Shown here: positions 1 through 52,329 of the stretch, piece by piece
Position numbering within the stretch: the stretch's first letter is position 1
Layout of the letters: each line of letters starts with the position of its first letter
Source of the DNA: Escherichia phage Mangalitsa
Direction: 5' to 3' (one strand)
Length of the DNA: 52,329 bases
Sequence record: NC_048799.1
The notes under the pieces: model-generated
Database searches by the model: none
Told to the model about the DNA's origin: nothing
The model's input: only the letters and a program-made list of their open reading frames with translations
Made by a program: the position numbers and the translations under genes

Positions 1-131
1 TTAAAATACGGTCCCTACCTCAACTTTTTCCTAGAGCCTATCGGCTTTCAATCAACACCAAGTTAGGCGCTTCGCTTATGAGTCAAGGTCAAAGGCAATC
101 AGAGCACGCTGTTGTAATGTGCTAGTCTCAC

Positions 132-150
132 CATTAGTTGGTTGTGATTA
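132..150 (+). promoter_or_regulatory. phage-RNAP-type promoter, variant class (CATTAGTTGGTTGTGATTA), upstream of the RNAP gene
   Basis: Member of a 10-copy motif family with core CATTAGT; closest match is the copy at 26372 upstream of terminase. Confidence 0.5.
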
Positions 151-210
151 TGAATAGGCTACGCAAGTCTAATCCGTTTCAGTTAAATCATAATCAATTG
201 GAGACTTATC

Positions 211-2325
211 ATGACTAACGAAGAATACCGTGCACTGGCTGCTGATGGCGCTCGCTTGAAAGAAGAAGGCCAAGGTTGGAAAGACGTGCTCGATACGATG
301 GACCGTTGCAACCAGATGGTAGATGAAATCACCTCCGCTACACAATCCGAAACTAAAACCGAAACTAAATTGGAGACTCGCAAAATGACAACTATCTCAA
401 CTCAAACTATCAAATCCGTTGTCCCTGCTATCACTGCCCTGGTATACCGTGCTAAAGAGAAACAGAATTACATGCAGCCTCAGACCTGTGCTATTGCTGC
501 TCTTGCAATCTTTAAGATGATGACCTCATTCACTCGTGATGATGTTGTTCCTGCAATGTCAATGGTTGAACTGGCTTCTGCTTCTATTGCTGATGCCAAC
601 CGTTACAACAACGACCTGAAAGCAATGCACTATGTTGACCCGGCTATCAACCTCATTGGTCTGGCTAAACACTTTGGCTTCATCACCATGAACGAAGACA
701 AGTCGTTCCAACAAACTGATGCATGGGTTGAGCTGGTTACTACCAAAGATACCTCAGTTCCATTTACTGAGCGTGTTACCACTGAATCTCGTCGCAAGCC
801 TTTCGTTAAAGGTGGCAAAGTTAAGCCATCCAAGACTCTGAAAGCTGCAATCGAATTCCTGCAAGATACTGAGTACCATGTGGAGACTGAGATGGTTCGC
901 GTCATCCAGTCTATGATTGAACAACGTACCTACGGTGGTTTGCAGGTGCCAGAAGCAATCCAGACTGAACTCCATGTTTGGAACAATGCTGTAGCAATGA
1001 TGACTCAGGACACTCTGTTCTCTGACTACTTTGCTGATAACCGTGGTCGTCTGTATCATGTAGCATGTGCTGGTCCTAACCCACAATCATCTGACTTTGC
1101 TCGTTGCTTGTATTCTCACAATGTTGAGAACATCGTTAAGAAGTTTAACGAAGATGGTTCTACTACCATTGCATACAACATGTTCATGGCAGAGCTGGAA
1201 GATATTTCCGGTGGTGAATGGTGTACTGCTAAGCGTTTAACTTATGTTGCTCAGAATCCAGCTGGTTCACTTGCTCGCATGATGAACATGGACAAATCTG
1301 AACGTCCTTCTAAGCCATTCACTTATGTTCGATTGGCTCTGGATTGGTTCAAGTTTGAGACTACAGGTGAGTGTGATTCTCGAGTAGGCTTTGGCTTAGA
1401 TGCTAAATGTTCTGGTACTCAATATCTGGCATTCATTGCTGGTAACATGGAGATGGCTCGTGCAACAGGTCTGGTTGATTCTGAGACTAAAGCATCTGAC
1501 CCATACCAGTTGAGTCTCCGTGAACTGTTGAAGCTACTGGATAAGTCTTCAATGAAACCATCTCCTGAAATTATGGATGAATTCTTGAATCCGAAAGCTG
1601 GTCGTAAGTTTATCAAAACTCCATACATGGCTATCCAATATGGTGGTGGTAAAGCTGCGTTAACTGGTTCTTCTGACTTTATCTCCTACATGACTGCATC
1701 TCTACAGATTCCAGTTGAGAAAGCAGAAGCATTTGCTGAACTGTGTGTGGAAGCAATCCATAACGCATTGGGTGCTAAGATTAACATGTTCATTGAGAAA
1801 GCTGCTGAAGCTGCATATAACCGTTGTGTTGAACTCAACAAAGAGTACATCACCTATAAGCACACTGATGGCCAAGTTGTAATGAAGCCTTGCTTCCCAT
1901 CTCGTGAAATCTGTGATGCATTCAGCATTCGTGTTGATTCTCAAACTCGTGTTATCTTTGGTCAGATTCAGGAAGAGAAACCTTGGACCATTCGTGAGTC
2001 CAATCCAACTAAGGAAGAATTCAAACGTACCTTCGTTGTTAACTACATTCAAGGTATTGATGCTCTGGTTGCTCGTACTGTTGCAGTTAAGGCTAAAGAA
2101 GCTGGTCTTCGTGGCTTTACTCCAATCCATGATTGTTTCCGTTGCTGTTTGGCTGATGCTCCACGCATGATGGAAGTTATTCGTGCAGCATATGTTGAAA
2201 TCTTTGTAACCAACAATCAATTCGAGAATCTGTCTAAGCAACTTGGTGGCATCAAGATGTATCACGAGAACATCGTAACCGAAGAGCTTCTGATGAGCGA
2301 ACACGCTTACTACTTCTGTCAATAA
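211..2325 (+). CDS. single-subunit DNA-dependent RNA polymerase, T7-like but compact (704 aa)
   Basis: Palm motifs readable in the translation: motif A DAKCSGTQYLA, motif B KFIKTPYMAIQYGGG, motif C IHDCF; RBS GGAGA before the ATG. Confidence 0.85.
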   Translation: MTNEEYRALAADGARLKEEGQGWKDVLDTMDRCNQMVDEITSATQSETKTETKLETRKMTTISTQTIKSVVPAITALVYRAKEKQNYMQPQTCAIAALAIFKMMTSFTRDDVVPAMSMVELASASIADANRYNNDLKAMHYVDPAINLIGLAKHFGFITMNEDKSFQQTDAWVELVTTKDTSVPFTERVTTESRRKPFVKGGKVKPSKTLKAAIEFLQDTEYHVETEMVRVIQSMIEQRTYGGLQVPEAIQTELHVWNNAVAMMTQDTLFSDYFADNRGRLYHVACAGPNPQSSDFARCLYSHNVENIVKKFNEDGSTTIAYNMFMAELEDISGGEWCTAKRLTYVAQNPAGSLARMMNMDKSERPSKPFTYVRLALDWFKFETTGECDSRVGFGLDAKCSGTQYLAFIAGNMEMARATGLVDSETKASDPYQLSLRELLKLLDKSSMKPSPEIMDEFLNPKAGRKFIKTPYMAIQYGGGKAALTGSSDFISYMTASLQIPVEKAEAFAELCVEAIHNALGAKINMFIEKAAEAAYNRCVELNKEYITYKHTDGQVVMKPCFPSREICDAFSIRVDSQTRVIFGQIQEEKPWTIRESNPTKEEFKRTFVVNYIQGIDALVARTVAVKAKEAGLRGFTPIHDCFRCCLADAPRMMEVIRAAYVEIFVTNNQFENLSKQLGGIKMYHENIVTEELLMSEHAYYFCQ

Positions 2326-2367
2326 CATTAATTGGTCAAGGATGACCACAACTACTTGGAGACTACA

Positions 2368-2568
2368 ATGAATACCATGCAAATCAAACAAATCGAAAAC
2401 TGTTTCAATCCTCACCACACTTGCAGCATGACTGATTTATCTCGTCCTACAGTGGAGGAGACTAAAGACTTCTTAGAATTGTTGTCAGAATATAAACAAG
2501 AATCGCATGTATTATTGCATGCATATTTACACAACTCTGGATACTTTGATACAGAGATACCGTTCTGA
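2368..2568 (+). CDS. hypothetical early protein (66 aa) ending in DTEIPF
   Basis: ORF-track frame 2332..2568 begins at TTG; the internal ATG at 2368 has a GGAGA RBS. C-terminus ...SGYFDTEIPF. Confidence 0.45.
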   Translation: MNTMQIKQIENCFNPHHTCSMTDLSRPTVEETKDFLELLSEYKQESHVLLHAYLHNSGYFDTEIPF

Positions 2569-2573
2569 TACTC

Positions 2574-2598
2574 GGGAGCTTCGGCTCCCTTTTCTTGT
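2574..2598 (+). terminator. intrinsic terminator, GGGAGC-UUCG-GCUCCC hairpin plus U-tract
   Basis: Perfect 6-bp GC stem with UUCG tetraloop followed by TTTTCTTGTTT, directly after the RNAP operon. Confidence 0.6.
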
Positions 2599-2620
2599 TT
2601 CAACTAATCTAAAGATGTAG

Positions 2621-2640
2621 CATTAGTTGCATGTGAATAA
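2621..2640 (+). promoter_or_regulatory. phage-RNAP-type promoter CATTAGTTGCATGTGAATAA
   Basis: Identical 20-mer recurs at 3749; family consensus CATTAGTTGR-ATGTGAA. Confidence 0.6.
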
Positions 2641-2660
2641 CAAACAATTTGGAGCATATC

Positions 2661-2825
2661 ATGTTCACAGTACATTACATAAACAAGAACTTATCCGAAG
2701 GTGTTTACAAGTGCGACACACTCAAAGAGGCAAGAGCGTTCGCCAGAAGCTTGAGAGAAGTAATATCTGTTGAAATCACAGATGGCGATAAAGAGTACGA
2801 TGTAGTTAAGCCTGAACTCCACTGA
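2661..2825 (+). CDS. hypothetical small protein (54 aa)
   Basis: ATG 21 nt after the promoter with GGAGCA RBS; below the 60-aa cutoff of the ORF track. Confidence 0.4.
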   Translation: MFTVHYINKNLSEGVYKCDTLKEARAFARSLREVISVEITDGDKEYDVVKPELH

Positions 2826-2838
2826 TTCCCAATATTCA

Positions 2839-2865
2839 GACAATATTGCTGCATGTAATATTGTC
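2839..2865. repeat. inverted repeat GACAATATT-N9-AATATTGTC
   Basis: Perfect 9-bp arms; belongs to the AATATTG..CAATATT family also at 3289, 3538 and the right end. Confidence 0.6.
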
Positions 2866-2876
2866 TCGATATTCGA

Positions 2877-2896
2877 CATTAGTTGGATGTGAAGTA
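2877..2896 (+). promoter_or_regulatory. phage-RNAP-type promoter CATTAGTTGGATGTGAAGTA
   Basis: Motif family member; the prefix GATATTCGACATTAGTTGG is shared with the copy at 10780. Confidence 0.55.
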
Positions 2897-3288
2897 ACAG
2901 AATACGGAGAAGTATTACTCACGTTGTTCGTGGGTTTCCGCATGTCATGTTGAAATCATTCTAGAAACATTTCAGCATGTCAACTAAACATACAGTGTTG
3001 TAATGATGTGGCAATCATTGAACTCCCTGTCTTTGGCCAGACAAAGTTCCAACAACCATGTGTGAAGTAGGATTATTATTCGAAACTGTTCTTCAACTAA
3101 GGCATGTTCACTTGTTTCAATATTGCTTCATCTCCTATTATCAAGGCCCACCCACAAGCCGGGAGATAACTTTGGCAAGACTGGAACTTTTGGACATGCT
3201 TCTTTCTTTCAATCAGAATTCGAAAGAAGAGAAGAGTCGGAGCAAAGTGGCATTACGAATCCCGTAGCCCGCCCCGATTTTGAGCAAC

Positions 3289-3306
3289 AAATATTGTGAC
3301 AATATT
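3289..3306. repeat. inverted-repeat 18-mer AATATTGTGACAATATTG, copy 1
   Basis: Exact duplicate at 3538..3555; imperfect palindrome. Confidence 0.65.
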
Positions 3307-3537
3307 GTCGCAGTATGGCATGTAAATATTGCTACAAATTGGCATGTTAGAATGTGGCAGAATTGTTAGAGGACTAATCACCTCGAAGATACAATTGTCT
3401 ACCAATCCGGCATGTTAATTTTGTAACAGTATTTGTGCCAAATTCGCATGTATTAGCTGTATCAGTATTAACCCAATATTCTTGCAACCCGCATGAATAC
3501 TGGCTTCCAGCCAAGCGAAGGCTTTATCATCGCATGT

Positions 3538-3555
3538 AATATTGTGACAATATTG
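3538..3555. repeat. inverted-repeat 18-mer AATATTGTGACAATATTG, copy 2
   Basis: Exact duplicate of 3289..3306. Confidence 0.65.
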
Positions 3556-3748
3556 GGATAAAACCCTTTATTTAATTAGTTTTATTATGCTGTACATGGT
3601 CGGTTTTCCGTACCTGCTGCGCCACTTCTTGATGTGCCAAATACATTCCAAGATAGGAGCAAACCTGTAATTAATGATGCATGTTTAGTTGTGACAAAAT
3701 TCGTCTATTTGGCAGATGAATTAGTTGCAATTAAGCATGTCCATTTAT

Positions 3749-3768
3749 CATTAGTTGCATGTGAATAA
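3749..3768 (+). promoter_or_regulatory. phage-RNAP-type promoter CATTAGTTGCATGTGAATAA, preceded by a partial copy at 3721..3734
   Basis: Identical to the 2621 copy; tandem partial motif TTAGTTGCAATTAA lies 28 nt upstream. Confidence 0.6.
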
Positions 3769-3869
3769 GACCAAATCTCTGTAAATTCTGCTGAAATTGT
3801 GTGGCAGATTTTAGAGAGATTATGTCTCCAAGCTAATCATTGTAGTTTTCGGCACTTCATGTGTCACAT

Positions 3870-3933
3870 ACTCCCTACAACTTTAAGGTGGATTGAGGTA
3901 AGACAAGACCTCCACAATCGTTCTGTAGGGAGT
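3870..3933 (+). other. structured 5' leader hairpin upstream of gene 3959
   Basis: 10-bp perfect long-range stem ACTCCCTACA / TGTAGGGAGT enclosing an inner GAGGT/ACCTC hairpin; sits between promoter 3749 and the RBS at 3948. Confidence 0.4.
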
Positions 3934-3958
3934 TTTCTTTTAACTTTGGAGAATAAAA

Positions 3959-4207
3959 ATGGATACTGTAATTAAAGCTGCTTGTTTCAAAGACCTGCAA
4001 GATGGTCAAATCTTCACTGTTCGTTCTGTGAAGTGGATTAAAGTAAATGAATCAGATAAGTACAATGCTGTAAAGTTCTTTGATTCAAGTAAGGCATGTA
4101 CTTTTAGCGACAATATTGTTGTCAATATTGAAGTCGAATTAACTCCTGAAGACGAAGATATTGAAGTGGCTCTTCGTAAAACTGCTGGATATAACGAGGG
4201 ATTCTAA
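3959..4207 (+). CDS. hypothetical early protein
   Basis: ORF with GGAGAA RBS; no recognisable motif. Confidence 0.5.
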   Translation: MDTVIKAACFKDLQDGQIFTVRSVKWIKVNESDKYNAVKFFDSSKACTFSDNIVVNIEVELTPEDEDIEVALRKTAGYNEGF

Positions 4208-4444
4208 ATGAATTATGCTTTATATCAATACATTAATCGTGATGGTGTTGTTGCTCACGCCTTAGTCAATACTAAGACAAAAGATGTAATGCTGGCTGAC
4301 ACAGTGATTTACTTCGAAAGAGGAAATCTGGTTTGGAAACCTGCTGCACATCCTGAATACGTTTGGCTTGCAATTCAAAATGACAAACATCACAAAATTG
4401 TAGCAATGGCCACGCACCCTCATTTCATTAAAGCAAGAGGTTAA
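4208..4444 (+). CDS. hypothetical early protein
   Basis: ORF tightly packed against neighbours. Confidence 0.5.
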   Translation: MNYALYQYINRDGVVAHALVNTKTKDVMLADTVIYFERGNLVWKPAAHPEYVWLAIQNDKHHKIVAMATHPHFIKARG

Positions 4445-4445
4445 T

Positions 4446-4634
4446 ATGGACTTCATCGTCTTCTTCAAATTAAATGATGTAGAGCAAAGGTTATACTTCA
4501 ATTCTTTATTTCGTTTACAGGAGTGGGCGGAGAAGTTTGTTGGTTACGACTTTGAATACATCAATGCATGTACAACTGACGAACATGAGGAAATCGTGTT
4601 CAGTTCTTTAAATCAAATTCTGGAGGCCAAATGA
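4446..4634 (+). CDS. hypothetical early protein
   Basis: ORF tightly packed against neighbours. Confidence 0.45.
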   Translation: MDFIVFFKLNDVEQRLYFNSLFRLQEWAEKFVGYDFEYINACTTDEHEEIVFSSLNQILEAK

Positions 4635-4876
4635 GCCAGTTTAAGTTAAAAGCAGATTTAATCGAATTGGCCTCTTATGAAGAGAAGGTCGAATTCATTC
4701 AGGAGCGTCTTGTTGTTAACTATGGTGGTTGGTGGGATATTGCAACAGATGAGCTAGTCACCATTGTTAAGGAAGAATTCGGCATTGAGCTGACCAATAA
4801 GCAATTTCTTGATGATGTTCTCACAGATAAAGTCGTTAAAGAAATTACAACCAATTTCATGACAAGTGTTCAGTAG
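4631..4876 (+). CDS. hypothetical early protein
   Basis: ATGA overlap with the upstream gene. Confidence 0.5.
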   Translation: MSQFKLKADLIELASYEEKVEFIQERLVVNYGGWWDIATDELVTIVKEEFGIELTNKQFLDDVLTDKVVKEITTNFMTSVQ

Positions 4877-4885
4877 GAGTATTAA

Positions 4886-5059
4886 ATGAACGACCAGCAA
4901 TTCAACACATTCATGCAGCAGATTAATCATCAAGAACTGATGGATGCCATCAAAGGCAAGAAGCCAGTCGAACGTCAATATCGTAAAATTGATAATTATA
5001 TGCCAACAATCATTGCATGTGTTGGTGTTGCTATTGTTCTCTACTTCCTGGTGAAATAA
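4886..5059 (+). CDS. hypothetical small membrane protein (57 aa)
   Basis: TAGGAGT RBS; hydrophobic C-terminal segment TIIACVGVAIVLYFLV; below ORF-track cutoff. Confidence 0.4.
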   Translation: MNDQQFNTFMQQINHQELMDAIKGKKPVERQYRKIDNYMPTIIACVGVAIVLYFLVK

Positions 5060-5154
5060 TGGACATTGTTAAGAAATTAGTGTTCTGCATTCTAATGTTC
5101 CCTCTGGTGCTGCTCGTTGTGGGCAGCTTCTTAATCTTTTAATAAGGTAATTCA

Positions 5155-5451
5155 ATGTCAATTCAGAAATTCCTTGATGTAGCAAACGTTGCTAAGAATT
5201 CGATTCCAAGCAATCCCGATATTCTCACCTCAATGCGTGTTGATGTTGCAATTCTGGCTTTGGCTGGTGAGCACATCAATGTACTTGAGAAGCAAGTTTC
5301 AGATTGTAAAAGTGAAATAATCACTTTGCGTGACCAGGTTGCCAGCCAAGAAGCGGCATATTCTGACCTCATGGATGCGAAAAACCATTTGCAACAACGG
5401 CTTGCAGATGCACTTGAAGAAATCGAAAGGTTAACACCTCCAACCAAATAA
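5155..5451 (+). CDS. hypothetical protein, coiled-coil-like
   Basis: ORF; heptad-like charged sequence. Confidence 0.5.
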   Translation: MSIQKFLDVANVAKNSIPSNPDILTSMRVDVAILALAGEHINVLEKQVSDCKSEIITLRDQVASQEAAYSDLMDAKNHLQQRLADALEEIERLTPPTK

Positions 5452-5466
5452 CAATTGGGAGTTATT

Positions 5467-5730
5467 ATGGCTACTAAGACTGGAATGATGATTGTCCCAA
5501 GCCGTAATAACTCTTTAAGCGGCTTTACTCCATATAAAATCTATGAAGTAATTTCTGGCACTGGTGAAGCAAACCTGTCAGAAGTTGCTTTGAAGCTAGG
5601 TAGGATGGTCCACTCCGACATTTCCTGTAACGTAGTTGATGATGAAGGTAAAATCCGTTTTGTAACAATGGATTTCTTTCGTGAATTTAATCTTAAATCT
5701 GAAATCGGTGTTTTATATCATGAAATTTAA
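5467..5730 (+). CDS. hypothetical protein
   Basis: ORF-track frame 5455 begins at TTG; first ATG at 5467. Confidence 0.5.
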   Translation: MATKTGMMIVPSRNNSLSGFTPYKIYEVISGTGEANLSEVALKLGRMVHSDISCNVVDDEGKIRFVTMDFFREFNLKSEIGVLYHEI

Positions 5731-5947
5731 ATGTGTTGCTTCAACCAAAGATTATGTTCCAGTTGGCTTCATCGTTGAAGGTGAAGCTATCTCACCTTTG
5801 GAATTTAAAGTGACCAAATCGGCTGAGGATGTTTCTCCAGCATTTCGTAAAGGTGCTGTCGTTCCTATGAATGGTGTATTCTGGACATGGCAGCGTGACC
5901 ATGAAGCAGAATTTGCAGATATTTGTGAACAAGGGTTATTGCAATGA
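5720..5947 (+). CDS. hypothetical protein, tandem paralog A
   Basis: Starts MKFKCVASTKDY..., contains VFWTW; resembles the next gene. Confidence 0.5.
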   Translation: MKFKCVASTKDYVPVGFIVEGEAISPLEFKVTKSAEDVSPAFRKGAVVPMNGVFWTWQRDHEAEFADICEQGLLQ

Positions 5948-6174
5948 CAAAGTTTAAATGTGTGAAATCGACCTCTTCATCTGAGTATTCTCCGAAGGTT
6001 GGAGATATTATTGAGGGAGAGCTTGTAACTATTAAAGACGAGGATGGAGTGCAGACTCGCATAAACATCACAGAAGACAGTGACCGCAGAACTTCCTATG
6101 GCGCCCCATATTGGTCTGCGGGAGAGAGTGTTCCCTTGGAAGGCAGTGTCTGGACTTGGGAAGAAGTTAAATAA
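5944..6174 (+). CDS. hypothetical protein, tandem paralog B
   Basis: Starts MTKFKCVKSTSS..., contains SVWTW. Confidence 0.5.
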   Translation: MTKFKCVKSTSSSEYSPKVGDIIEGELVTIKDEDGVQTRINITEDSDRRTSYGAPYWSAGESVPLEGSVWTWEEVK

Positions 6175-6237
6175 TTTCCTCAACCGCTTTTGTAATGAGA
6201 GTGGTTGCTGAATATTATTAATTAACTTGGAGCATTT

Positions 6238-6525
6238 ATGAAACAGCGTACTCGTTTACAACGTGACCCAGCCACAGGCCGCTTGTTACCAGCATATTTG
6301 AAGGTTGGTGACTTAGTTTACACTCGTGACTTTGCTTTTGATATTTGCCCAAGCAAAGTTTATGTTGTTCTGGCTACCAGCTTGTCAAAACCTAAAGTGC
6401 TGTTTGGTGCACTTGAACCAATTCAATTAACCGGAACTCAATTTGTCATCAAAGATGAATCTGGTTGTAACCGAATCTTCAGTCTTGGAGGTGGACTATC
6501 TAAGTGGGAGAAAGTGAGGAAATGA
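6238..6525 (+). CDS. hypothetical protein
   Basis: ORF with GGAGCA RBS. Confidence 0.5.
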   Translation: MKQRTRLQRDPATGRLLPAYLKVGDLVYTRDFAFDICPSKVYVVLATSLSKPKVLFGALEPIQLTGTQFVIKDESGCNRIFSLGGGLSKWEKVRK

Positions 6526-6809
6526 ATAAGAATTCAATCGTTAAATATGTTGGTGAAACAAATTCCAGCTTCACCAAAGGCAAGAAGTACAAAATCGTCG
6601 CAGGTCGTGGTGACGGAGTTCCTCGAAACAGCGGTACATTAGGTGCGTATATTCAATCTCCTTTGGGTTTTGTCGTTATTGATGATAACAACGTTCTACT
6701 CTATCGTTCATTCACCAATTTGTGGGAGTTGGTGAAAGATTCTGGCGAAGTAAGTTGGTATAAACCTGAATCAAACATCGACCCGATTCCTATTTCAAAG
6801 GTGATGTAA
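6522..6809 (+). CDS. hypothetical protein
   Basis: ATG with GAGGAA RBS, ATGA overlap with upstream stop. Confidence 0.5.
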   Translation: MNKNSIVKYVGETNSSFTKGKKYKIVAGRGDGVPRNSGTLGAYIQSPLGFVVIDDNNVLLYRSFTNLWELVKDSGEVSWYKPESNIDPIPISKVM

Positions 6810-6850
6810 ATTAACAAGGGGCATTCATTGAGTGTTCCTGATTAATTCAA

Positions 6851-6870
6851 CATTAGTTGGATGTGAGAGA
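6851..6870 (+). promoter_or_regulatory. phage-RNAP-type promoter CATTAGTTGGATGTGAGAGA
   Basis: Motif family member, 70 nt upstream of the SSB-tail gene. Confidence 0.55.
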
Positions 6871-6938
6871 CAAAGCTATTCCGTGGTTAGCAATGTCGCT
6901 GAAACTTAAACTGTAATTAACTTAAAGAGAATTTAATC

Positions 6939-7313: not shown

Positions 7314-7326
7314 TTGGAGATGCCCT

Positions 7327-7912: not shown

Positions 7913-7964
7913 TTAACAGAGGTCATTCCACTTCGAGTGGCCTCGATTAATTATTGGAGGTTAC

Positions 7965-9315: not shown

Positions 9316-9335
9316 CTTCATCAATGGAGCATCCG

Positions 9336-45583: not shown

Positions 45584-45584
45584 C

Positions 45585-46226
45585 ATGGCTACTAAACATG
45601 GCTTGGAGATGTTGTTATCTCAGTATTACAACTCGCCAAACTTAAAGAAGTACATTTCAATCTTCATTGAAGAGTTTGCTGAAGTTAAACAAGCCATGTC
45701 CGACTCTGTAAAGTATCGTTACCTTGCAGATTCCTTTGGCGTCATGGTTGATGACATTGCCTACATTGTTGGCACTGAACGTACAATTATTGGCGCTGAA
45801 GCTATCGGATACTTTGGCTTCTATCGTGACCCGTCTGCATACCCAGCAGGTGATGACAACGACCCAGATGTTGGTGGCATACTTAAGTCAGATTATGACA
45901 AAGACTCCGGTGACTTCGTTCGTACCGATGAGCAACTTAAGAATGCTATTCGTGCCAGGATTACCAAAATCACTGGCAACTGTAACATCGAACAAATCAT
46001 TACATACCTTGAACTTGTAATTGGACGAGACTTAGACCTTGAAATTAGAGAAGGGTTTAAGCGAATGGATTATATTGTCCATGAGAGTTTATCTGTTGCA
46101 GACAAGGTTATGCTGGCTCACATGATTCCACGATTTAAACCTGTTGGAATCACTGTAACACTTGAAGATAATAATGGCGTTATCGACCTGGTGTTCAGTT
46201 CTAAAGACTTCCCGCCGGAGACATAA
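45585..46226 (+). CDS. putative baseplate/tail protein (gpI-like position)
   Basis: Positional. Confidence 0.4.
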   Translation: MATKHGLEMLLSQYYNSPNLKKYISIFIEEFAEVKQAMSDSVKYRYLADSFGVMVDDIAYIVGTERTIIGAEAIGYFGFYRDPSAYPAGDDNDPDVGGILKSDYDKDSGDFVRTDEQLKNAIRARITKITGNCNIEQIITYLELVIGRDLDLEIREGFKRMDYIVHESLSVADKVMLAHMIPRFKPVGITVTLEDNNGVIDLVFSSKDFPPET

Positions 46227-47371
46227 TGACTAATCGTTTAACTTTCCAATTTCCCTGGGCGCAAGATGGTGAAGTTGCTGACCCAGACTTAGACACAACC
46301 AACCCAAGTTACGTTGCAAACCGATATGCAGACATGGGATGGGAAGCTGAGAAGCCTCCAAACGAATGGCAGAACTTCTTAACACAGATTAGCGATTTAA
46401 AGATTATGTCTTTACTCTTCTCTGGTGTGGCAGAGTTTGATAGCAGTGTTACATATCAAACTGGTGCAGTGTCTGTCCTTAATGGTGTTGTGCAAATTAA
46501 GGTTGCCTCCGGTTGGGAACAAATCCTGGACATGAAGACTGTCGATTATTTAAATGATGTTGCAGCATTGAAACTCATTTATGATAATCACATGGCAGCA
46601 ACCAACCCTCACCAAGATACAGTTGAGACACTTACAGATAAGAGTCGCACCAAAGAGTATCTGGATGCTGCATTCGGAAGTCCTACCGACCCACAAACAA
46701 TTGTTTATCATAAATTGCAACAAGGTCGTGTTCACCAGGAAACTCCAGAGCAGGTTGGGACTCTTCCAATATCTGGTGGTACATTCACTGGTCCTGTGTC
46801 ATTCCTTGCTGGGATGGGGTTTGCAACAAACAACACTGTCAGTATGAACGGTGCAACAGGTCGTTTGGAACTTCGTAGTGGTAATCGTATTCTGTCTATT
46901 GATGCTCTAGGAAATGTTATCTGGAGCATAGTTGGTGGTGAAGAATATCCCGTGATGACGGAGCTGAATTACTCAGAGTTTCAAATCCGTTGGGGAAACA
47001 GATTTGCACTCCCAACACCATACTTGAGCATGAACCTATCTGCCAGTATTAATGATGCTTGCTCTGTTCGTGGTTGGAAGATTTCAACAACGGGAACACC
47101 AGCATTTCACCCTATGGGTGGGTTGAAGATTGATGACAATACTGTAACCTTCTCCGGATTTGATGTTTCTTGTCCAACCACAATAGTGGCCTTTACAAGA
47201 AATGCTTCCGGTACTCTTGGGAGAGGTAACTCTGATGCTCCGTCTGGTGGGTATACAAGCCTTAACACACTCCTTACGAACCTTGGAATAGTTGATGCTG
47301 CTTACATCGTAAGTATCACTTGCTACCCAACGTTAACCGCTTATCAGAAATCAATGTTAGTGAGGCCATAA
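46226..47371 (+). CDS. putative tail fiber protein
   Basis: Contains NPHQDT fiber-repeat-like segment. Confidence 0.45.
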   Translation: MTNRLTFQFPWAQDGEVADPDLDTTNPSYVANRYADMGWEAEKPPNEWQNFLTQISDLKIMSLLFSGVAEFDSSVTYQTGAVSVLNGVVQIKVASGWEQILDMKTVDYLNDVAALKLIYDNHMAATNPHQDTVETLTDKSRTKEYLDAAFGSPTDPQTIVYHKLQQGRVHQETPEQVGTLPISGGTFTGPVSFLAGMGFATNNTVSMNGATGRLELRSGNRILSIDALGNVIWSIVGGEEYPVMTELNYSEFQIRWGNRFALPTPYLSMNLSASINDACSVRGWKISTTGTPAFHPMGGLKIDDNTVTFSGFDVSCPTTIVAFTRNASGTLGRGNSDAPSGGYTSLNTLLTNLGIVDAAYIVSITCYPTLTAYQKSMLVRP

Positions 47372-48765
47372 TGGCGCTTCGTCCTGAATTAAACCGCGTC
47401 TGGACTTCAAACAACTCTGTTGCCAGACGTGACCCAGGGGATGCAAAGTATCTCCAAGGTTGGGTTGCTGAGATACCAACCTATCAAGTTTTAAACTATT
47501 TGCAGTACAAAGTTGATACCACAATGCTTGCTCAGGCGGAACGTGGAATCTTCGAGTGGGGTGGTGATGTTTCTTATGGTGTTGGCAGTTTGGCTTGGGA
47601 CGAAACAAACAAAACTATTTATGTTTGTACTGTAACAAACCCAAGCAAGACTTTAGCACCAAGTGTCAACCCTTCTCAATGGAGTCCGAGCGCCATTCAG
47701 GTATCTCGTGCAAATTATGACTCTGTTGTGTCTGCAATCAATAACCACATTGCAAACCGAGCAAACCCACACCAAGTAACTGCTGCACAGGTTGGTACAT
47801 ATAACCGTGCTGAAATGGATGCGCTTGTTTCAAACTACCGTGCAATGGTGTTGGCCCACGCCTCAGACTACAACAACCCACACAACTTAACTGCTGTTCA
47901 AGTTGGTGCTGTTCCTGTAACTGGTGGTGAGTATACTGGTCAGGTTACTATGCCAACTGCATACTTCAATGAGTCCAAAACTGCACAACTGTTGCAAGAC
48001 AATGGACTATGGTTGAAGAATGGCAACTACTTACTAGGTATTAACGGTACGACAGGGAATCCCGAAGCAGGAACTGCTGCAAGCAAGTCCCGGATAGTCA
48101 CAGAACTTATCTTCCCAGACTTGAAAGCTGCACAAGAGTCTGAATATGCAGTAGAAGCGCCATACTATGAAATGGCACTAATAGGTTCTGTAAACATACT
48201 TCGTGGCACAGGAACATTCAGTACCGGGAACTCCGAGCCTATGTACTTGGCATCATCTGGTGGTGCTCTAACATTCGACAGCTCACCAACCAGCCCATCA
48301 CAGTCATTCAACGCTTCTTCACAACTCCCTGCTGGCCCAAGTATGACGGTCTGTGCCGATGTTATGAGGGTGTCACAGTCTGATACAAGTGATGGCAACT
48401 GGCAGCTAAGTTTCGGCACCGCAGATTTCAATATCACCATTGGGTACAATGGGTATACTACCATTAGGTACAGGAGCCTAGCAGGAAGTATTGCTGTAAT
48501 ATTGCAGGGTGTAATCTCCCAAGATTTGAAAACCGTAGGTGTGTGGAACAGGGTGTCGGCAACACTTTCTGGAAGCACTATGAAGGTGTTTGTAAACGGT
48601 GCACTGCTATTCTACAAAGAGCAAGAAGTTGGTGTTGCAGTGGAGAGAGCGCCATTTATAACTAAATGGGCTATGGTTGGGGCTACCACAAACTCTAGAA
48701 TGTCTATTAGGGCTTTTAGGTTGTGGGACTCGGCACTAACAGATAAACAAATCTCAACCTTATAG
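47371..48765 (+). CDS. putative tail fiber protein
   Basis: Repeated NPHQVTAAQVG / NPHNLTAVQVGA fiber-repeat motifs; ATG 47371 with GAGG RBS. Confidence 0.5.
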   Translation: MALRPELNRVWTSNNSVARRDPGDAKYLQGWVAEIPTYQVLNYLQYKVDTTMLAQAERGIFEWGGDVSYGVGSLAWDETNKTIYVCTVTNPSKTLAPSVNPSQWSPSAIQVSRANYDSVVSAINNHIANRANPHQVTAAQVGTYNRAEMDALVSNYRAMVLAHASDYNNPHNLTAVQVGAVPVTGGEYTGQVTMPTAYFNESKTAQLLQDNGLWLKNGNYLLGINGTTGNPEAGTAASKSRIVTELIFPDLKAAQESEYAVEAPYYEMALIGSVNILRGTGTFSTGNSEPMYLASSGGALTFDSSPTSPSQSFNASSQLPAGPSMTVCADVMRVSQSDTSDGNWQLSFGTADFNITIGYNGYTTIRYRSLAGSIAVILQGVISQDLKTVGVWNRVSATLSGSTMKVFVNGALLFYKEQEVGVAVERAPFITKWAMVGATTNSRMSIRAFRLWDSALTDKQISTL

Positions 48766-48773
48766 GATTCAAA

Positions 48774-49859
48774 ATGGCTAAAGGCTATTCTTTAGACGCG
48801 TTGGTGCAAGAGCACTATATGAAGTCTAGTACCAACCTGGATAATATAAATATCGACACCCTTACAGGAATGGATAGTGTTGGAGTGTATTACCAGTCAT
48901 ACAACGCTTATGCCATACTTGCAAATAATTACCCTCCAGGTGCGCAAGCAGGTACTTTGGAGGTTATTCCAACAAACGTAGGCTCTGCGGGTCGTGTGAC
49001 ACAAAGATATACAAACTGGCAAGACCTTCGTATGTGGGTGCGCGGCCAAAGTGGAAGCACGACGGCGGCCGATTTAAGTTTTAGCCCGTGGGTGGAGTTT
49101 ATAAATGCCAACAACATTTATAATGCCATCTATCCGATTGGTATTGTTCTCAAGTTTGATAACGCCACCAACCCAAACAACTCCTTCACAGGAACTGTGT
49201 GGCAACAAATCACAGATGGTCGTGCTGTTCGTGCTGCAACTTCTGCTGTGGCTGGAGCTACCGATGGACAGATTGGTTCTGTAGCTGGCAGTGATTCTGC
49301 ATCAATCGCTGTAGCCAACCTCCCATCACACACCCACAACATGCGTAACCATACCCACTCTATTGCGTCCCACACGCACACTATGGCCCATACGCACTCA
49401 ATAAACCACGACCACGGTGCGGTAACATCGAGTTCGGCTGGTGCTCACACACACAGCTTGAGTGGCACTGCTGCTTCTGCTGGGAACCACAACCACAACC
49501 AGGGCGTTGCATGGGAGCATGGTGGCGACACGCAGTATGGCTCTGTTACTGTTGGTAACAAGTCGCGTCGCCAGGACTGGCTTGATGGTGGTAACAACCA
49601 GTATCCTAAGACTTCAACCAACGGTGCTCACACACATAGTGTTAGTGGTACTGCAAACTCTGCTGGCGCTCACACGCACTCTGTAGACCTGCCTAACTTC
49701 ACAGGCACAAGTGGTGGCTCCAGTGCTGCTAACACAGGCGGTACTGCCCTGACGACTGGTGCACCTAGCTCCAACGAATCGGATGCAACTGGCGGCGGTA
49801 CTGCCTTAACCGTCCGTAACTCATCTCACTACTATGCCCTCTGGAAACGAGTGGCTTAA
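48774..49859 (+). CDS. tail fiber distal protein with His-x-His repeats
   Basis: HTHNMRNHTHSIASHTHTMAHTHSINHDHG and two further GAHTHS repeats, resembling metal-coordinating HxH motifs of myovirus fiber tips. Confidence 0.55.
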   Translation: MAKGYSLDALVQEHYMKSSTNLDNINIDTLTGMDSVGVYYQSYNAYAILANNYPPGAQAGTLEVIPTNVGSAGRVTQRYTNWQDLRMWVRGQSGSTTAADLSFSPWVEFINANNIYNAIYPIGIVLKFDNATNPNNSFTGTVWQQITDGRAVRAATSAVAGATDGQIGSVAGSDSASIAVANLPSHTHNMRNHTHSIASHTHTMAHTHSINHDHGAVTSSSAGAHTHSLSGTAASAGNHNHNQGVAWEHGGDTQYGSVTVGNKSRRQDWLDGGNNQYPKTSTNGAHTHSVSGTANSAGAHTHSVDLPNFTGTSGGSSAANTGGTALTTGAPSSNESDATGGGTALTVRNSSHYYALWKRVA

Positions 49860-49866
49860 GGAAATC

Positions 49867-50208
49867 ATGGAACGCTTATCCATTCAGATGTTTCTCGACC
49901 TCATGCACCAATACGGCGTTTGGCATGGATTGCTGGCTGGCCTGACGGCTCTAATCCGTGGGGCATACGAGAGTGAGGGTTTAAGCAAGGCGTTGCTGGA
50001 TGCGACGCTATGCAGCTTAATCGGCCTGTTTGCATTTCAGGTCGCTGGCACATTTGAGACTTTCACGACTAACGTCACTATGCAGTTAGTTCTTGCGATT
50101 GTTATCGGTGTGATTGGTGCAAACCTCATTATCACAACTGTCAGGGAAAGTTTCTCTGGCGCAATCAAACAACTTAATCCTTTGACGTGGTTCAAGAAGG
50201 CACGATGA
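49867..50208 (+). CDS. putative holin
   Basis: Three predicted TM segments, basic C-terminus, AAGGAA RBS; immediately upstream of a cell-wall hydrolase. Confidence 0.45.
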   Translation: MERLSIQMFLDLMHQYGVWHGLLAGLTALIRGAYESEGLSKALLDATLCSLIGLFAFQVAGTFETFTTNVTMQLVLAIVIGVIGANLIITTVRESFSGAIKQLNPLTWFKKAR

Positions 50209-50225
50209 AATGATAAGGAACTCGA

Positions 50226-50780
50226 ATGCTATCATTCAAAGTTCTTGCACTTCTGACAGCTTTAGTTCACATCAACGCCCCAGCTTCGGTTGGGGCAGTG
50301 AATTCTGCTATTACAGATTTTGCAAGTCATTCCTATTTAAATGGAAGTCTGAAACTATCTTCTTCACAACGCAAAGAGCTAGAATGCTATACTAAAGTAA
50401 TCTGGTACGAAGCTCGTGGTGAAGATAAACATGGAAAGATTCTGGTAGCTAATGTCGTCCGTAATAGAACAGAGTTCGGGAAGCCATTCGCTAACACCGT
50501 TTGTAATGTTGTCTACCAACGCAATCAATTTGCATGGACACGAGAAGCAAAGAAGAAGAATGCTCAATGGAAGCATGTAGCAAAGATTAATTATGCCACA
50601 GAACAACAACAAGTTCTGGACACCATTAATGTTGCAATCTCTTTTGTACTATTTAATCAACCCTCTATCACCAAAGCAACTCACTTTTGTACAGCATCGG
50701 AGAAGTGCAACTTCAAGAATGTCAAAGGTCTGGGCCGCTATGGTGGACATAAATTCTATGAGTATCTAGGAAATCTGTAA
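50226..50780 (+). CDS. SleB-type cell wall hydrolase with N-terminal signal or signal-anchor sequence
   Basis: [29 protein letters not shown]...[17 protein letters not shown] matches the SleB/CwlJ catalytic-domain pattern; hydrophobic N-terminus [24 protein letters not shown]. Confidence 0.65.
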
Positions 50781-51880
50781 TGGCTTACACTACCTTTTCA
50801 CAAACCAAGAATAACCAACTACTAGAGCCAATGTTCTTTGGTCAGAACGTTAACGTTGCTCGATATGACCAACAGAAGTACAGCATCTTCGAGAAGTTAA
50901 TCGAGAAGCAGTTATCATTCTTTTGGCGACCTGAAGAGGTTGATGTTAGCCAGGACCGAATTGACTATGCCAGTCTGCCTGAATGCGAGAAGCACATCTT
51001 CACAAGCAACTTGCGTTACCAAATCCTGCTTGATTCCATTCAGGGACGTGGGCCAACCACAGTTCTGCTACCAATTGTGAGCATTCCTGAACTGGAAACT
51101 TGGATTGAAACTTGGTCTTTCTCTGAGACAATTCATTCCCGTTCTTACACTCATATTATTCGTAATATTGTCACCGACCCAAGTGTAATCTTTGATGAAA
51201 TTGTGGAGAATGAGCATATTAAAATGCGTGCAATTGGCATCTCTCAATATTATGATGAGCTTCAGCATCTCACTTCCATGTGGCATCTGCATGAAGATGA
51301 AGTAGACCTCCGTGAACTTAAGAAGAAGCTGTATTTATGCCTCATGTCCATCAATGCACTGGAAGCAATTCGCTTCTATGTTAGCTTTGCTTGCTCATTT
51401 GCCTTCGCTGAACGTAAGTTAATGGAAGGAAATGCCAAGATTATTCGCTTAATTGCTCGTGATGAAGCACTCCATTTGACCGGAACTCAACACATGTTGA
51501 ACCTACTTGCAAGTGGTGTTGATGACCCAGAAATGGCCGAAATTGCCAAAGAATGCCGTCAAGAATGCCAAGAAATGTTCGAAAATGTGGCCCAACAAGA
51601 GAAAGATTGGGCTGATTATTTGTTCAAAGATGGCTCAATGATTGGCTTAAATAAGCAAATTCTGTGCGGATATGTGGAATATATCACGAATATTCGTATG
51701 CAAGCAGTTGGATTGGATGCTCCATTCAAAGGTGCAACTAACCCGATTCCATGGATTAATGCATGGTTGAATTCGGATGCTGTACAAGTTGCTCCACAGG
51801 AAACGGAGATTAGTTCGTACCTTGTCGGGCAGATTGACTCCGAAGTTGACACCAATGCTCTGGGCGGATTTGAATTATGA
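50780..51880 (+). CDS. nrdB: ribonucleotide reductase class Ia small subunit (NrdB)
   Basis: Near-identical over long stretches to E. coli NrdB as recalled ([11 protein letters not shown]..., [16 protein letters not shown]..., C-terminal [13 protein letters not shown]). Confidence 0.9.
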
Positions 51881-51997
51881 TTGGTTACGGTGAAGGCTGA
51901 CGTTTGTCAGTTAATATGTGAGAAGAGATTCGATGCGTTAGCGTCGTTTCTCTTTGAGCTAGAATAAAACAAGTAAATTAAATATTTATTTATTCCC

Positions 51998-52014
51998 AAT
52001 ATTGCTACAATATT
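51998..52014. repeat. AATATTGCTACAATATT site (related copies at 3325 and 52184)
   Basis: Same family as the AATATTGTGACAATATT inverted repeats of the early intergenic region. Confidence 0.5.
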
Positions 52015-52056
52015 AAGAGTAATATTAGGAATGCGTAAAGTTCAAAACCAAATGGT

Positions 52057-52109
52057 ACATGGTCGGTCAACTGCACCTGCTTCAATCTTCGTTCATGGTC
52101 GGTCGACTG
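52057..52109. repeat. direct repeat ACATGGTCGGTC(A/G)ACTG, two copies 37 nt apart
   Basis: Copies at 52057..52073 and 52094..52109; a third partial copy ACATGGTCGGTT at 3594..3605. Confidence 0.5.
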
Positions 52110-52150
52110 TATCTCGCCGAAATTTGTTCGAACAGAAGTCCGACTATGAA

Positions 52151-52183
52151 ATAATTTTTTTTTTATAATTTTTTTTTATTTTT
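52151..52183. repeat. AT-rich tract with T10 and T9 homopolymer runs
   Basis: ATAATTTTTTTTTTATAATTTTTTTTTATTTT. Confidence 0.5.
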
Positions 52184-52204
52184 CAATATTGCTACAGAAT
52201 TAAT

Positions 52205-52260
52205 GAGACTAGAATTGTTACGATATTGGAGACTCGAATTTGTTCGATATTAACGAGACT
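52205..52260. repeat. three GAGACT-containing direct repeats with about 25-bp period
   Basis: GAGACT at 52205, 52229 and 52255 in similar contexts, followed by TGTGACAATATT at 52268. Confidence 0.4.
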
Positions 52261-52329
52261 CAATCTGTGACAATATTATAATTTTATTTTTGGGCCAGCG
52301 GGGAGGGGAAGCCCAACGTCCTATCGGAC

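Follow-up and report, generated by a model that had tools for sequence, protein, structure and literature searches.

Escherichia phage Mangalitsa, a phiEcoM-GJ1-like phage with T7-style transcription and replication genes and a predicted contractile tail

The window is the entire 52,329-bp sequence of Escherichia phage Mangalitsa (NC_048799.1), with a G+C content of 44.0% (Table 1). Open reading frames on the plus strand cover about 89 to 90% of it, and all minus-strand frames of at least 80 aa are nested in larger plus-strand frames, in agreement with a sequence-only reading that had placed all supported genes on one strand. That reading had also named the first gene a T7-family single-subunit RNA polymerase (RNAP), and the profile matches bear this out. 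The protein has catalytic motifs A, B, and C. In its BLASTP alignment with T7 RNAP (E = 2e-5, 20% identity), DxxCSGxQ and IHDxF line up, and RxxxKxxxMxxxYG is present as well. Its divergence is such that phmmer, run on the PDB with this one sequence, returned nothing at E <= 0.01. The gene start in phages phiEcoM-GJ1 (GJ1) and ST32 corresponds to the ATG at 385 of Mangalitsa, and positions 211 to 384 are an in-frame, 58-codon 5' extension that is annotated in JL1 too and is not found in GJ1, TH53, or ST32.

Table 1. Coordinates of features in the Mangalitsa genome
Feature	Position	Strand	Evidence
JL1 terminal-repeat counterpart	1..3238	+	JL1 repeat maps to ~52325/1..3238
Phage-promoter-like sites, n = 11, consensus ACATTAGTTGGATGTGA	131..40906	+	Motif scan
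Single-subunit T7-family RNA polymerase	211..2325	+	PF00940 E=1.5e-18; phrog_414 E=5.5e-97
Terminator-like intergenic hairpins, n = 7	2574..51946	+	Folding energies and z-scores
Single-strand DNA-binding protein	6939..7313	+	phrog_7364 E=1.1e-38
Thymidylate synthase (ThyX type)	16364..17014	+	phrog_85 E=1.2e-69; GJ1 and FXie annotations
T7 gp4-like primase-helicase	17020..18783	+	Toprim and DnaB_C/AAA_25 domains
Family A DNA polymerase (T7 gp5-like)	18850..20784	+	PF00476; BLASTP vs T7 gp5 E=3e-8
5'-3' exonuclease (T7 gp6-like)	22411..23436	+	PF02739; BLASTP vs T7 gp6 E=2e-4
ATP-dependent DNA ligase	23962..24717	+	DNA_ligase_OB_2 and ligase domains
Terminase large subunit (TerL)	26384..28429	+	Terminase_6C; GJ1 gp48 ortholog
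Portal protein (PF06381 type)	28643..29962	+	E=3.7e-74
Head maturation protease/scaffold (DUF2213)	29856..30995	+	PF09979 E=7.2e-31; phrog_530 E=2.9e-69
Capsid cement/decoration protein (E217 gp24 / Pam3 gp6 type)	31005..31478	+	PF22758 E=1.1e-16
Major capsid protein (PF09950 family)	31826..32833	+	PF09950 E=6.8e-48; Pam3 capsid 8hdt_A E=3.2e-33
Tail completion / neck terminator protein	34068..34580	+	PF23961; phrog_12771 E=6.3e-83
Contractile tail sheath, 482 aa	34581..36029	+	DUF3383 E=4.9e-64; phrog_205 E=1.9e-97
Tail tube protein, 151 aa	36041..36496	+	9mt4_P 3e-10; Pam3 tube 0.0098; phrog_280
Tail assembly chaperone pair	36512..37146	+	PF21822; phrog_11820
Tape measure protein, 1239 aa	37139..40858	+	PF09588 and PF01464; phrog_19855
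Baseplate module	40931..46226	+	Profile matches; GJ1 annotation
Baseplate hub	40931-42025	+	
Dit-like protein	42025-42927	+	
Baseplate plug	42924-43292	+	
Spike (V-like)	43264-44079	+	PF18352
W/gp25-like wedge	44079-44450	+	phrog_120
J-like wedge	44426-45583	+	PF04865
DUF2612 protein	45585-46226	+	
Three tail fibre genes (46226-47371, 47320-48765, 48774-49859)	46226..49859	+	phrog_8147 and phrog_2097
Holin/anti-holin	49834-50208	+	phrog_126 and phrog_938 (with endolysin)
Endolysin-like protein	50226-50780	+	phrog_126 and phrog_938 (with holin)
Ribonucleotide reductase small subunit	50780-51880	+	PF00268 E=2.3e-49
Likely host (sigma-70) early promoter region, 5' of RNAP gene	52166..52290	+	TTAACG-18-TATTAT at 52250-52279

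A promoter family specific to the phage had been proposed, and the motif is real. At three mismatches or fewer, the consensus ACATTAGTTGGATGTGA occurs 11 times, exclusively on the plus strand, versus 0.24 expected (starts at 131, 2620, 2876, 3748, 6850, 10450, 10591, 10779, 12764, 21009, and 40890). Nine of the 11 sites are intergenic, orthologous sites are found in GJ1 and TH53, and eight are among the nine putative phage promoters annotated in GJ1. The sites are putative phage promoters. According to the ICTV profile, promoters of chaseviruses "have not yet been identified." Hairpin terminators had also been proposed. The seven strongest plus-strand hairpins (2574-2589, 5109-5127, 7919-7944, 21960-21975, 26167-26186, 40859-40884, and 51931-51946) all lie within about 55 nt 3' of a stop codon, at -12 to -19 kcal/mol and z-scores of -2.0 to -5.8, and two sit directly before promoter-like sites (2620 and 40890). 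In total, terminator-like hits were no more numerous than in shuffled sequence.

The genome ends can be predicted from a relative. In vB_EcoM_JL1 (JL1), positions 1 to 2995 equal positions 52577 to 55571 at 100%, an exact 2,995-bp direct terminal repeat. The Mangalitsa sequence holds a single copy of the counterpart and starts within about 5 nt of the JL1 repeat boundary, which suggests that the virion DNA also carries a direct terminal repeat. The probable early host promoter region at the right end is contiguous with position 1 in relatives, and the GJ1 annotation places a putative sigma-70 promoter at the orthologous site.

Resemblance to T7 and the Autographiviridae goes beyond unidirectional genes, an early RNAP related at the level of the protein family, and a dedicated set of putative promoters and hairpin terminators. 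Judged by protein homology, it extends to the primase-helicase (BLASTP against gp4, E = 2e-35, 26% identity), the DNA polymerase, and the 5'-3' exonuclease, the last with a PF02739 match (E = 5.8e-7) of 29.8 bits, under the curated cut-off of 34.3 bits. It does not include the terminase, whose large subunit had no similarity to T7 gp19. The Mangalitsa RNAP is without about 100 to 240 N-terminal residues of the T7 enzyme, and its putative promoters bear no relation to the T7 consensus. Head and tail are likewise unrelated, a predicted contractile tail standing against the short podovirus tail of T7, and the genome is 52 kb rather than 40 kb. Direct terminal repeats may be another shared trait, but the T7 repeat is 160 bp whereas that predicted for Mangalitsa is about 3 kb, with the RNAP gene inside.

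The virion genes follow the order terminase, portal, scaffold, decoration protein, and capsid, as first described. The true start of the protease/scaffold gene is probably downstream of 29856. The accompanying label of a lambda-like head with an E-like capsid does not hold at the family level. If the module had come from lambda B, C/Nu3, D, and E, or were their family-level homologue, the shared gene order and the presence of a decoration protein would be accounted for, and the HK97 fold is common to the capsid proteins of all tailed phages. The portal (PF06381), capsid (PF09950), and cement (PF22758) families, however, are not those of lambda, and BLASTP of the three proteins against lambda B, E, and D found no similarity (E-values of 0.69 to 1.4). 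Among solved structures, the capsid protein is closest to that of Pam3, and its family also occurs in T1-like Drexlerviridae and cyanophages. We consider a lambda-like head very unlikely; the likeness is one of gene order only. The nearest solved relatives of the portal, capsid, and cement proteins are those of Pam3, a myophage, and its kin.

The 482-aa and 151-aa proteins had been described as sheath-sized and tube-sized, and a check for other identities came out negative: the sheath matches solved sheaths of Pam3 (8hdr_M, 7.7e-17), 7kh1 (3e-12), and phi92 gp130 (1e-6), and the tube matches solved tube proteins. A frameshifted chaperone pair had also been noted. A 152-aa product is encoded at 36512-36970, and the -1 frame opens exactly at a slippery T_TTT_TTC (36868-36874) and extends to 37146, for a predicted 211-aa product. 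GJ1 and TH53 have an identical slippery site in an identical context, and in GJ1 the -1 extension is conserved at the protein level. A -1 frameshift of the lambda G/GT type is predicted here, a likeness general to long-tailed phages, while the Mangalitsa tail is predicted to be contractile and not siphovirus-type. The tape measure protein has the expected C-terminal SLT transglycosylase domain (aa 1045-1149), and V-, W-, and J-like baseplate genes are likewise present. Within the genus, few parts of the genome diverge more than the fibre genes, and the fibre and baseplate region at 42 to 50 kb is about 74 to 78% identical to GJ1 and TH53 where aligned.

The tape measure protein also contains a central lambda-Exo/YqaJ nuclease domain (aa ~448-646, nt ~38480-39076), with PDB matches to 3syy_A (1.8e-7) and lambda exonuclease (2e-3). 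The domain is conserved with catalytic residues intact, and the catalytic motif is invariant in five genera. We found no paper that discusses it.

Cyanophage Pam3 (8hdr/8hdt) and, by Pfam family names, Pseudomonas phage E217 share with Mangalitsa the families of the capsid, cement, sheath, tube, baseplate hub, and plug proteins. The similarity is distant (E-values of 1e-10 to 1e-33), and the Mangalitsa tape measure differs in carrying nuclease and SLT domains. To our knowledge, a T7-type RNAP has not been reported for Pam3 or E217.

Where Mangalitsa belongs is clear from whole-genome comparison. Classified Carltongylesvirus records, dozens of isolates, align collinearly over the full length at 84 to 94% DNA identity and cover 84 to 96% of each genome half at that identity. 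GJ1, JL1, TH53, and FXie-2024a share the taxonomy line Chaseviridae; Cleopatravirinae; Carltongylesvirus. The nearest records (FXie-2024a, SKA49, TH53, and JL1) and GJ1 have the same gene order, strand, genome size, RNAP-first layout, promoter motif at orthologous sites, frameshift site, tape measure architecture, sheath, tube, and baseplate genes. Of the four HNH endonuclease genes in GJ1, three are missing from Mangalitsa, no tRNA gene was detected at the place where GJ1 annotates one, and Mangalitsa has two extra small-gene inserts bearing promoter-like sites (2620-2825 and 10609-10795). The ICTV profile of the Chaseviridae lists myovirus morphology, a single-subunit RNAP, a genome of 52 to 56 kb with a G+C content of 39 to 52.5%, and terminal repeats of about 3 kb. 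We conclude, with a probability of about 0.97, that Mangalitsa is a phiEcoM-GJ1-like virulent E. coli myophage of the genus Carltongylesvirus, represented by a complete, non-redundant genome with a single copy of the terminal repeat. No observation spoke against placement in this family and genus. The contractile-tailed morphology of Mangalitsa is predicted from the sequence and from relatives.

The description of a mosaic of T7-style transcription and contractile-tail genes stands, but the idea that such a phage cannot be placed in any known group has to be dropped. One could suppose that a T7-like podovirus had been joined to an unrelated myovirus in a chimeric assembly, a possibility that the sequence-only reading had itself raised, as the halves have different nearest model phages, T7-like for replication and transcription and Pam3-like for structural proteins. 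The same collinear layout, however, recurs in dozens of phages that were isolated and sequenced independently: bases 1-25000 are covered to at least 80% by at least 35 records, and bases 27330-52329 to the same extent by at least 20. In GJ1 and in TH53 alike, each 2-kb bin has an aligned counterpart. Against either phage, identity at the replication/structural junction near 26 kb is 92% with 100% coverage, and over the surrounding 24 to 30 kb it is 91 to 95% with 99 to 100% coverage. Moreover, G+C content shows no step at the junction (range, 0.38 to 0.49 over the whole genome), and the two parts share one promoter motif, present at 21009 and at 40890. Given collinearity in at least 35 isolates, a chimera is refuted for practical purposes. 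A new family or genus uniting T7-like and myovirus modules is just as improbable: the genome could not be placed from its letters, and no record in the collection searched reached 95% identity, but the identity and coverage given above are well above the cited genus threshold of roughly 70%, and the Chaseviridae are already ratified by the ICTV. As no record reached the 95% species threshold (the best, FXie-2024a, gave about 81% for the first half and 88% for the second as identity times coverage), Mangalitsa is at most another species within the known genus.

We propose that Carltongylesvirus Mangalitsa would be expressed as follows. From sigma-70-type promoters immediately 5' of the left end, host RNA polymerase would transcribe the phage RNAP gene. 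The divergent phage RNAP would then read the family of roughly 17- to 20-bp promoters, which are dense in the first 13 kb; the 21.0-kb copy precedes the genes for late replication, packaging, head, and tail, and that at 40.9 kb precedes baseplate and fibres. Intergenic hairpins may punctuate the transcription units. DNA would be replicated by the T7-like set, recognized by homology, of gp4-like primase-helicase, family A polymerase, gp6-like exonuclease, ligase, and single-strand DNA-binding protein. The virion genes are unrelated to those of T7 and lambda. They specify a portal of the PF06381 type, a protease/scaffold with DUF2213, an HK97-type capsid of family PF09950 with E217/Pam3-type cement, and a simple contractile tail of sheath, tube, frameshifted chaperones, tape measure, and P2/Mu-style baseplate. 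By homology, the nearest solved counterparts of this module are Pam3 and kin.

A T7-type RNA polymerase and replication genes with a contractile tail were published in 2008 as the hallmark of this kind of phage, and the combination and predicted promoters were already in earlier papers. The mosaic is real but ordinary, a defining trait of the Chaseviridae. Ultimately, it is neither recent recombination nor an artefact but an old, stable lineage trait common to the whole family.

Where Mangalitsa belongs is decided by DNA identity to genomes that are already classified. Each half of the window (bases 1-25000 and 27330-52329) was compared by megablast with 50,697 phage records (collection release of August 2025), and about 79 related records were found, from phages of Escherichia, Yersinia, Erwinia, Pectobacterium, and Proteus. 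At least 35 records covered at least 80% of the first half, the best being TH53, FXie-2024a, JL1, and SKA49 at about 90 to 91% identity (for FXie-2024a, 90.7% identity at 89% coverage). For the second half, at least 20 records reached 80% coverage, led by FXie-2024a (93.8% identity, 94% coverage) and followed by SKA49 (90%). The classification Chaseviridae; Cleopatravirinae; Carltongylesvirus is given to GJ1 (phiEcoM-GJ1), JL1 (vB_EcoM_JL1), TH53, and FXie-2024a alike. Moreover, the RNA polymerase (RNAP) and TerL genes are highly identical in DNA sequence to those of classified Chaseviridae members, which makes membership in that family effectively certain. DNA-level identity to classified genomes thus settles the placement, and the view of the sequence-only reading that the combination fits no phage group known to it is wrong.

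The thresholds are about 70% nucleotide similarity for a genus and, as the ICTV criterion, more than 95% nucleotide identity over genome length for a species. As identity times coverage, TH53 scored 83.7%, and GJ1, the prototype of the genus, scored 74.7% in a comparison limited to 50 of the 53 kb of GJ1; both values lie above the genus threshold for Carltongylesvirus. None of the 50,697 records in the August 2025 collection exceeded the species threshold, the best standing at about 81 to 88% identity times coverage. Relative to that collection, Mangalitsa would be one more species of Carltongylesvirus. We note that the TH53 record (MT446419.1, marked "UNVERIFIED") is exactly 52,329 bp, the same length as the window. 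The two are about 87% identical overall, their starts are offset by 119 nt, and bases 50001-52329 of the window align inside bases 1-50000 of TH53; the equal length is treated as a coincidence. We also note that PP952070.1, "Staphylococcus phage Pel53," matches 85% of the first half of the window at 88.6% identity, and its host assignment (Staphylococcus hyicus) is probably wrong.

What was read as an unplaced mosaic is the signature of a known family. According to the ICTV profile, Chaseviridae are myoviruses, with micrographs available for relatives, whose linear genomes of 52 to 56 kb are terminally redundant through repeats of about 3 kb, whose G+C content is 39.3 to 52.5%, and whose single-subunit RNAP is akin to the one in Autographiviridae. 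The same combination appears in later papers on flopper, ST32, and PP101, which also describe unidirectional open reading frames, an early RNAP, and promoters predicted for the phage. The window is 52,329 bp with one copy of the putative repeat, has a G+C content of 44.0%, encodes an RNAP with the T7 family domains and motifs, and qualifies as a myovirus at the gene level only, through sheath, tube, and baseplate genes homologous to those of solved contractile tails. The pairing of a T7-type RNAP and replication module with a contractile-tail virion was reportedly described for phiEcoM-GJ1 in 2008. This pairing defines Chaseviridae, a family ratified by ICTV. Membership in Autographiviridae would call for a podovirus virion with a T7-type head, tail, and terminase, whereas the window carries sheath, tube, and baseplate genes, and its terminase has no similarity to T7 gp19 by BLASTP.

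The possibility that two phages were joined in assembly is dismissed by an identity profile in 2-kb bins against GJ1 and TH53. Every bin contained aligned sequence in both (74 to 95% identity), and the boundary between replication and structural genes (24 to 30 kb) was among the best-conserved parts, at 91 to 95% identity and 99 to 100% coverage. The most divergent region relative to the same two phages was 38 to 50 kb, which holds the baseplate and fibre genes and part of the tape measure. G+C content ranged from 0.38 to 0.49 along the window with no step. The first half matched TH53 best and the second FXie-2024a, which is ordinary mosaicism within the genus. The genome is not chimeric.

Family searches identified the RNAP as a T7-family single-subunit enzyme, as had been proposed, and BLASTP aligned it directly to T7 RNAP (E = 2e-5, 20% identity over 445 residues). 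All three palm motifs are present: motif A reads LDAKCSGTQ against FDGSCSGIQ of T7 (containing D537), motif C reads IHDCF against IHDSF, and motif B reads RKFIKTPYMAIQYGG against RSVTKRSVMTLAYGS. Motif B was found by its pattern (RxxxKxxxxxxxYG), as MAFFT and BLASTP both shifted it. The enzyme is shorter than that of T7 (646 to 704 versus 883 aa), and the alignment gave about the first 100 T7 residues no counterpart, such that a full-length T7-like N-terminal promoter-binding domain is absent; the N-terminal part is either missing or too different to align. The alignment is weak up to about T7 residue 410, and the Pfam match spans positions 78 to 369 of the 448 in the profile. A single-sequence phmmer search of the PDB returned no match at an E value of 0.01 or below, the sequence being too divergent for such a search; the case for homology to T7 RNAP comes instead from Pfam, PHROG, and the direct BLASTP and MAFFT comparisons. 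We note that the RNAP reading frame has an in-frame 58-codon 5' extension (211-384) and that the ribosome-binding sequence TTGGAGACT occurs twice, at 199 and 370. The 704-aa form is also the one annotated in JL1; in GJ1, ST32, and TH53 the 174 nt are missing, and the gene begins at the position equivalent to ATG 385.

The replication genes likewise include T7-like members. By BLASTP, the primase-helicase matched T7 gp4 (E = 2e-35), the family A polymerase matched gp5 (E = 3e-8), and the 5'-3' exonuclease matched gp6 (E = 2e-4). Further replication and nucleotide genes encode a ligase, SSB, ThyX, a dNMP kinase, a dUTPase, and the small subunit of ribonucleotide reductase (RNR). A longest-frame call of 167 aa at 24738-25241 had no family match and is probably spurious; the dNMP kinase lies in an overlapping frame at 24608-25336 (phrog_139, E = 1.4e-38), and its actual start probably lies inside that frame, near 24710.

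The structural module carries contractile-tail genes, and its head is not lambda-like. Portal, cement, and capsid proteins gave no BLASTP similarity to lambda B, D, and E (E values of 0.69 to 1.4) and belong to different Pfam families (Table), the capsid family being shared with T1-like Drexlerviridae and cyanophages. Thus, "lambda-like" is true of gene order only; the sequence-only description of a mosaic stands for the T7-like RNAP and replication genes joined to a contractile-tail module and falls for the lambda-like head and E-like capsid. The tail assignments held throughout. The 482-aa and 151-aa proteins are sheath and tube by homology to solved structures, the sheath also matching 7kh1 (E = 3.1e-12) and phi92 gp130 (E = 1e-6). 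The tape measure does carry the transglycosylase domain (SLT) attributed to it, and the V/W/J-like baseplate genes are recognizable, the spike belonging to PF18352 and being annotated COG4540/gpV in GJ1. Finally, the proposed frameshifted chaperone pair is supported by a T_TTT_TTC at 36868 in slippery register within the chaperone gene (PF21822). In the -1 frame, a TGA stands just ahead of this site; from exactly that point the frame is open for 92 codons, to 37146, and it overlaps the beginning of the tape measure gene. GJ1 and TH53 share an identical site and context, and in GJ1 the protein sequence of the extension is conserved; the predicted frameshift would yield a 211-aa fusion protein.

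Table. Principal features of the window and the matches that identify them
Feature	Coordinates	Strand	Matches and remarks
Single-subunit RNAP	211-2325	+	PF00940, E = 1.5e-18; phrog_414 "RNA polymerase," E = 5.5e-97
Terminase large subunit (TerL)	26384-28429	+	Terminase_6C
Portal	28643-29962	+	PF06381, E = 3.7e-74
Protease/scaffold	29856-30995	+	DUF2213; phrog_530
Cement protein	31005-31478	+	PF22758 (E217 gp24/Pam3 gp6)
Major capsid protein	31826-32833	+	PF09950; Pam3 capsid 8hdt_A, E = 3.2e-33
Sheath, 482 aa	34581-36029	+	DUF3383; phrog_205; Pam3 sheath 8hdr_M, E = 7.7e-17
Tube, 151 aa	36041-36496	+	Solved tube protein 9mt4_P, E = 3e-10; Pam3 tube
Tape measure, 1239 aa	37139-40858	+	SLT at aa 1045-1149; nuclease domain at nt ~38480-39076
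Baseplate genes			Hub, Dit-like, Pam3 gp18-like plug, spike, W/gp25-type wedge, J-like, DUF2612; then three fibre genes

The tape measure also contains a central YqaJ/lambda-Exo domain (PF09588, E = 1.2e-12, plus RecE-like PHROG families), which matched 3syy_A (E = 1.8e-7) and lambda exonuclease (E = 2e-3) in the PDB. Lambda Exo uses a catalytic D...ExK motif and an arginine that binds the 5' phosphate. Across five chasevirus genera, all Cleopatravirinae, and lambda Exo, the elements SPDGL...WEHKNP, an N-terminal W..R, and YMDQVQ do not vary, and the predicted catalytic residues and phosphate-binding arginine of a PD-(D/E)XK nuclease are in place. Conservation of the full nuclease-plus-SLT architecture extends to 78 records, with identities as low as 45%. 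Outside Chaseviridae, the phage homologs found for the domain were all stand-alone recombination exonucleases or unannotated reading frames, and a literature search returned no paper that treats tape measures with nuclease domains. In SKA49, the tape measure gene is auto-annotated as a "putative endonuclease." One proposal, which we consider unlikely, is that the tape measure of Cleopatravirinae supplies a virion-borne 5'-3' exonuclease, carried into the cell along with the DNA, that might either resect the ~3-kb terminal repeats and let them anneal for circularization or concatemer formation or attack host or competitor DNA.

The probable ends of the genome can be read from relatives. There was no repeat between the two ends of the window, and in GJ1 the last bases of the window run directly into its first bases; thus, the window would be one unit of a terminally redundant genome. 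JL1 has an exact 2,995-bp repeat at both ends that maps to the window from ~52325/1 through 3238, which puts the window start within about 5 nt of the JL1 repeat boundary. We infer that about 3.2 kb, present in one copy in the window, forms a direct terminal repeat, which would take in the RNAP gene together with three of the promoter sites. We note two repeat families in the largely noncoding 2.5- to 3.8-kb region, which spans the right boundary of this putative repeat. GCATGT is strand specific, with 14 of its 25 plus-strand copies within 1.3 kb (2480-3810; 10.5 per kb versus 0.22 per kb elsewhere). The palindrome AATATTG-N3-CAATATT has 20 matches against 4.65 expected and also occurs at 52.0 to 52.2 kb (51980-52290), just upstream of the left boundary. 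Candidate roles for these repeats are early host promoters, iterons of an origin, or elements for end processing.

Three of the four GJ1 HNH homing-endonuclease genes are absent from the window: gp34, between thyX and the primase-helicase gene (window junction 17014-17020); gp36, before the DNA polymerase gene (18783-18850); and gp47, before TerL (26151-26384). Only gp41 has a counterpart, at 23448-23972. In the region matching 13200-16360, the GJ1 record has a tRNA-Arg "that may contain an intron," whereas ARAGORN detected no tRNA and Rfam at gathering thresholds no family anywhere in the window. In the window, 13200-16360 has long stretches without convincing reading frames (gaps of 497, 310, and 740 nt) and a spanin-like frame at 14874-15188. 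The lysis genes are split between the early/middle region, where an endolysin at 8803-9315 (phrog_465) is annotated as an L-alanyl-D-glutamate peptidase in FXie-2024a, and the far right, where a holin and a second endolysin-like frame (49834-50780) adjoin the RNR small subunit gene.

How transcription is organized was also predicted by the sequence-only reading. The one-strand layout was borne out: plus-strand reading frames occupy about 89 to 90% of the window, and every minus-strand frame of at least 80 aa lies inside a larger plus-strand one. As to the proposed promoters of the RNAP's own, the GJ1 record annotates nine "putative phage promoters" with the core ACATTAGTTGGATGTGA. With up to three mismatches, the core occurs 11 times in the window, always on the plus strand, against 0.24 expected from shuffles, and 9 of the 11 sites are intergenic. 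GJ1 and TH53 have nine copies each, none on the minus strand, at orthologous positions where core identity is mostly 15 to 17 of 17; the flanks are nearly as conserved, and therefore the core leaves no independent footprint. The window sites are concentrated in its first 13 kb. The site at 131 is upstream of the RNAP gene, that at 21009 comes ahead of the genes for late replication, packaging, head, and tail, and that at 40890 comes ahead of those for baseplate and fibres. A generic sigma-70 scan showed no enrichment over shuffles (33 versus 39.6, 25 versus 30.3, and 19 versus 23.3) and could not place early promoters. We predict that the 11 sites are promoters for the phage RNAP.

The proposed hairpin terminators fared less evenly. 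The seven strongest plus-strand hairpins (-12 to -19 kcal/mol; z-scores of -2.0 to -5.8) each lie within about 55 nt downstream of a stop codon, and those at 2574 and 40859 directly precede the promoter-like sites at 2620 and 40890. The total from a generic terminator scan, however, was not clearly above that of shuffled sequence, with a mild excess in the first 20 kb only (23 versus 15.6). The scan is informative for the strongest plus-strand hairpins only, and position rather than number suggests that these may be terminators. We note that a 58-aa CxxC...CPxC zinc-ribbon frame (10609-10785) sits between promoter copies at 10591 and 10779. At that place GJ1 and TH53 carry one promoter, its two flanks corresponding to the outer flanks of the pair in the window; the promoter at 2620 and the frame at 2649-2825 are likewise absent from GJ1. 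This arrangement suggests that promoter copies may act as recombination joints for small-gene cassettes.

The useful outcome is a correction: the genome is placeable and nonchimeric, with a head of the Pam3/T1 (PF09950) type instead of a lambda-like one. For the family, the ICTV profile states that chasevirus promoters "have not yet been identified," and the 11-site motif, found at orthologous positions in relatives, is a concrete target for testing which sequences may serve as promoters for the phage RNAP.
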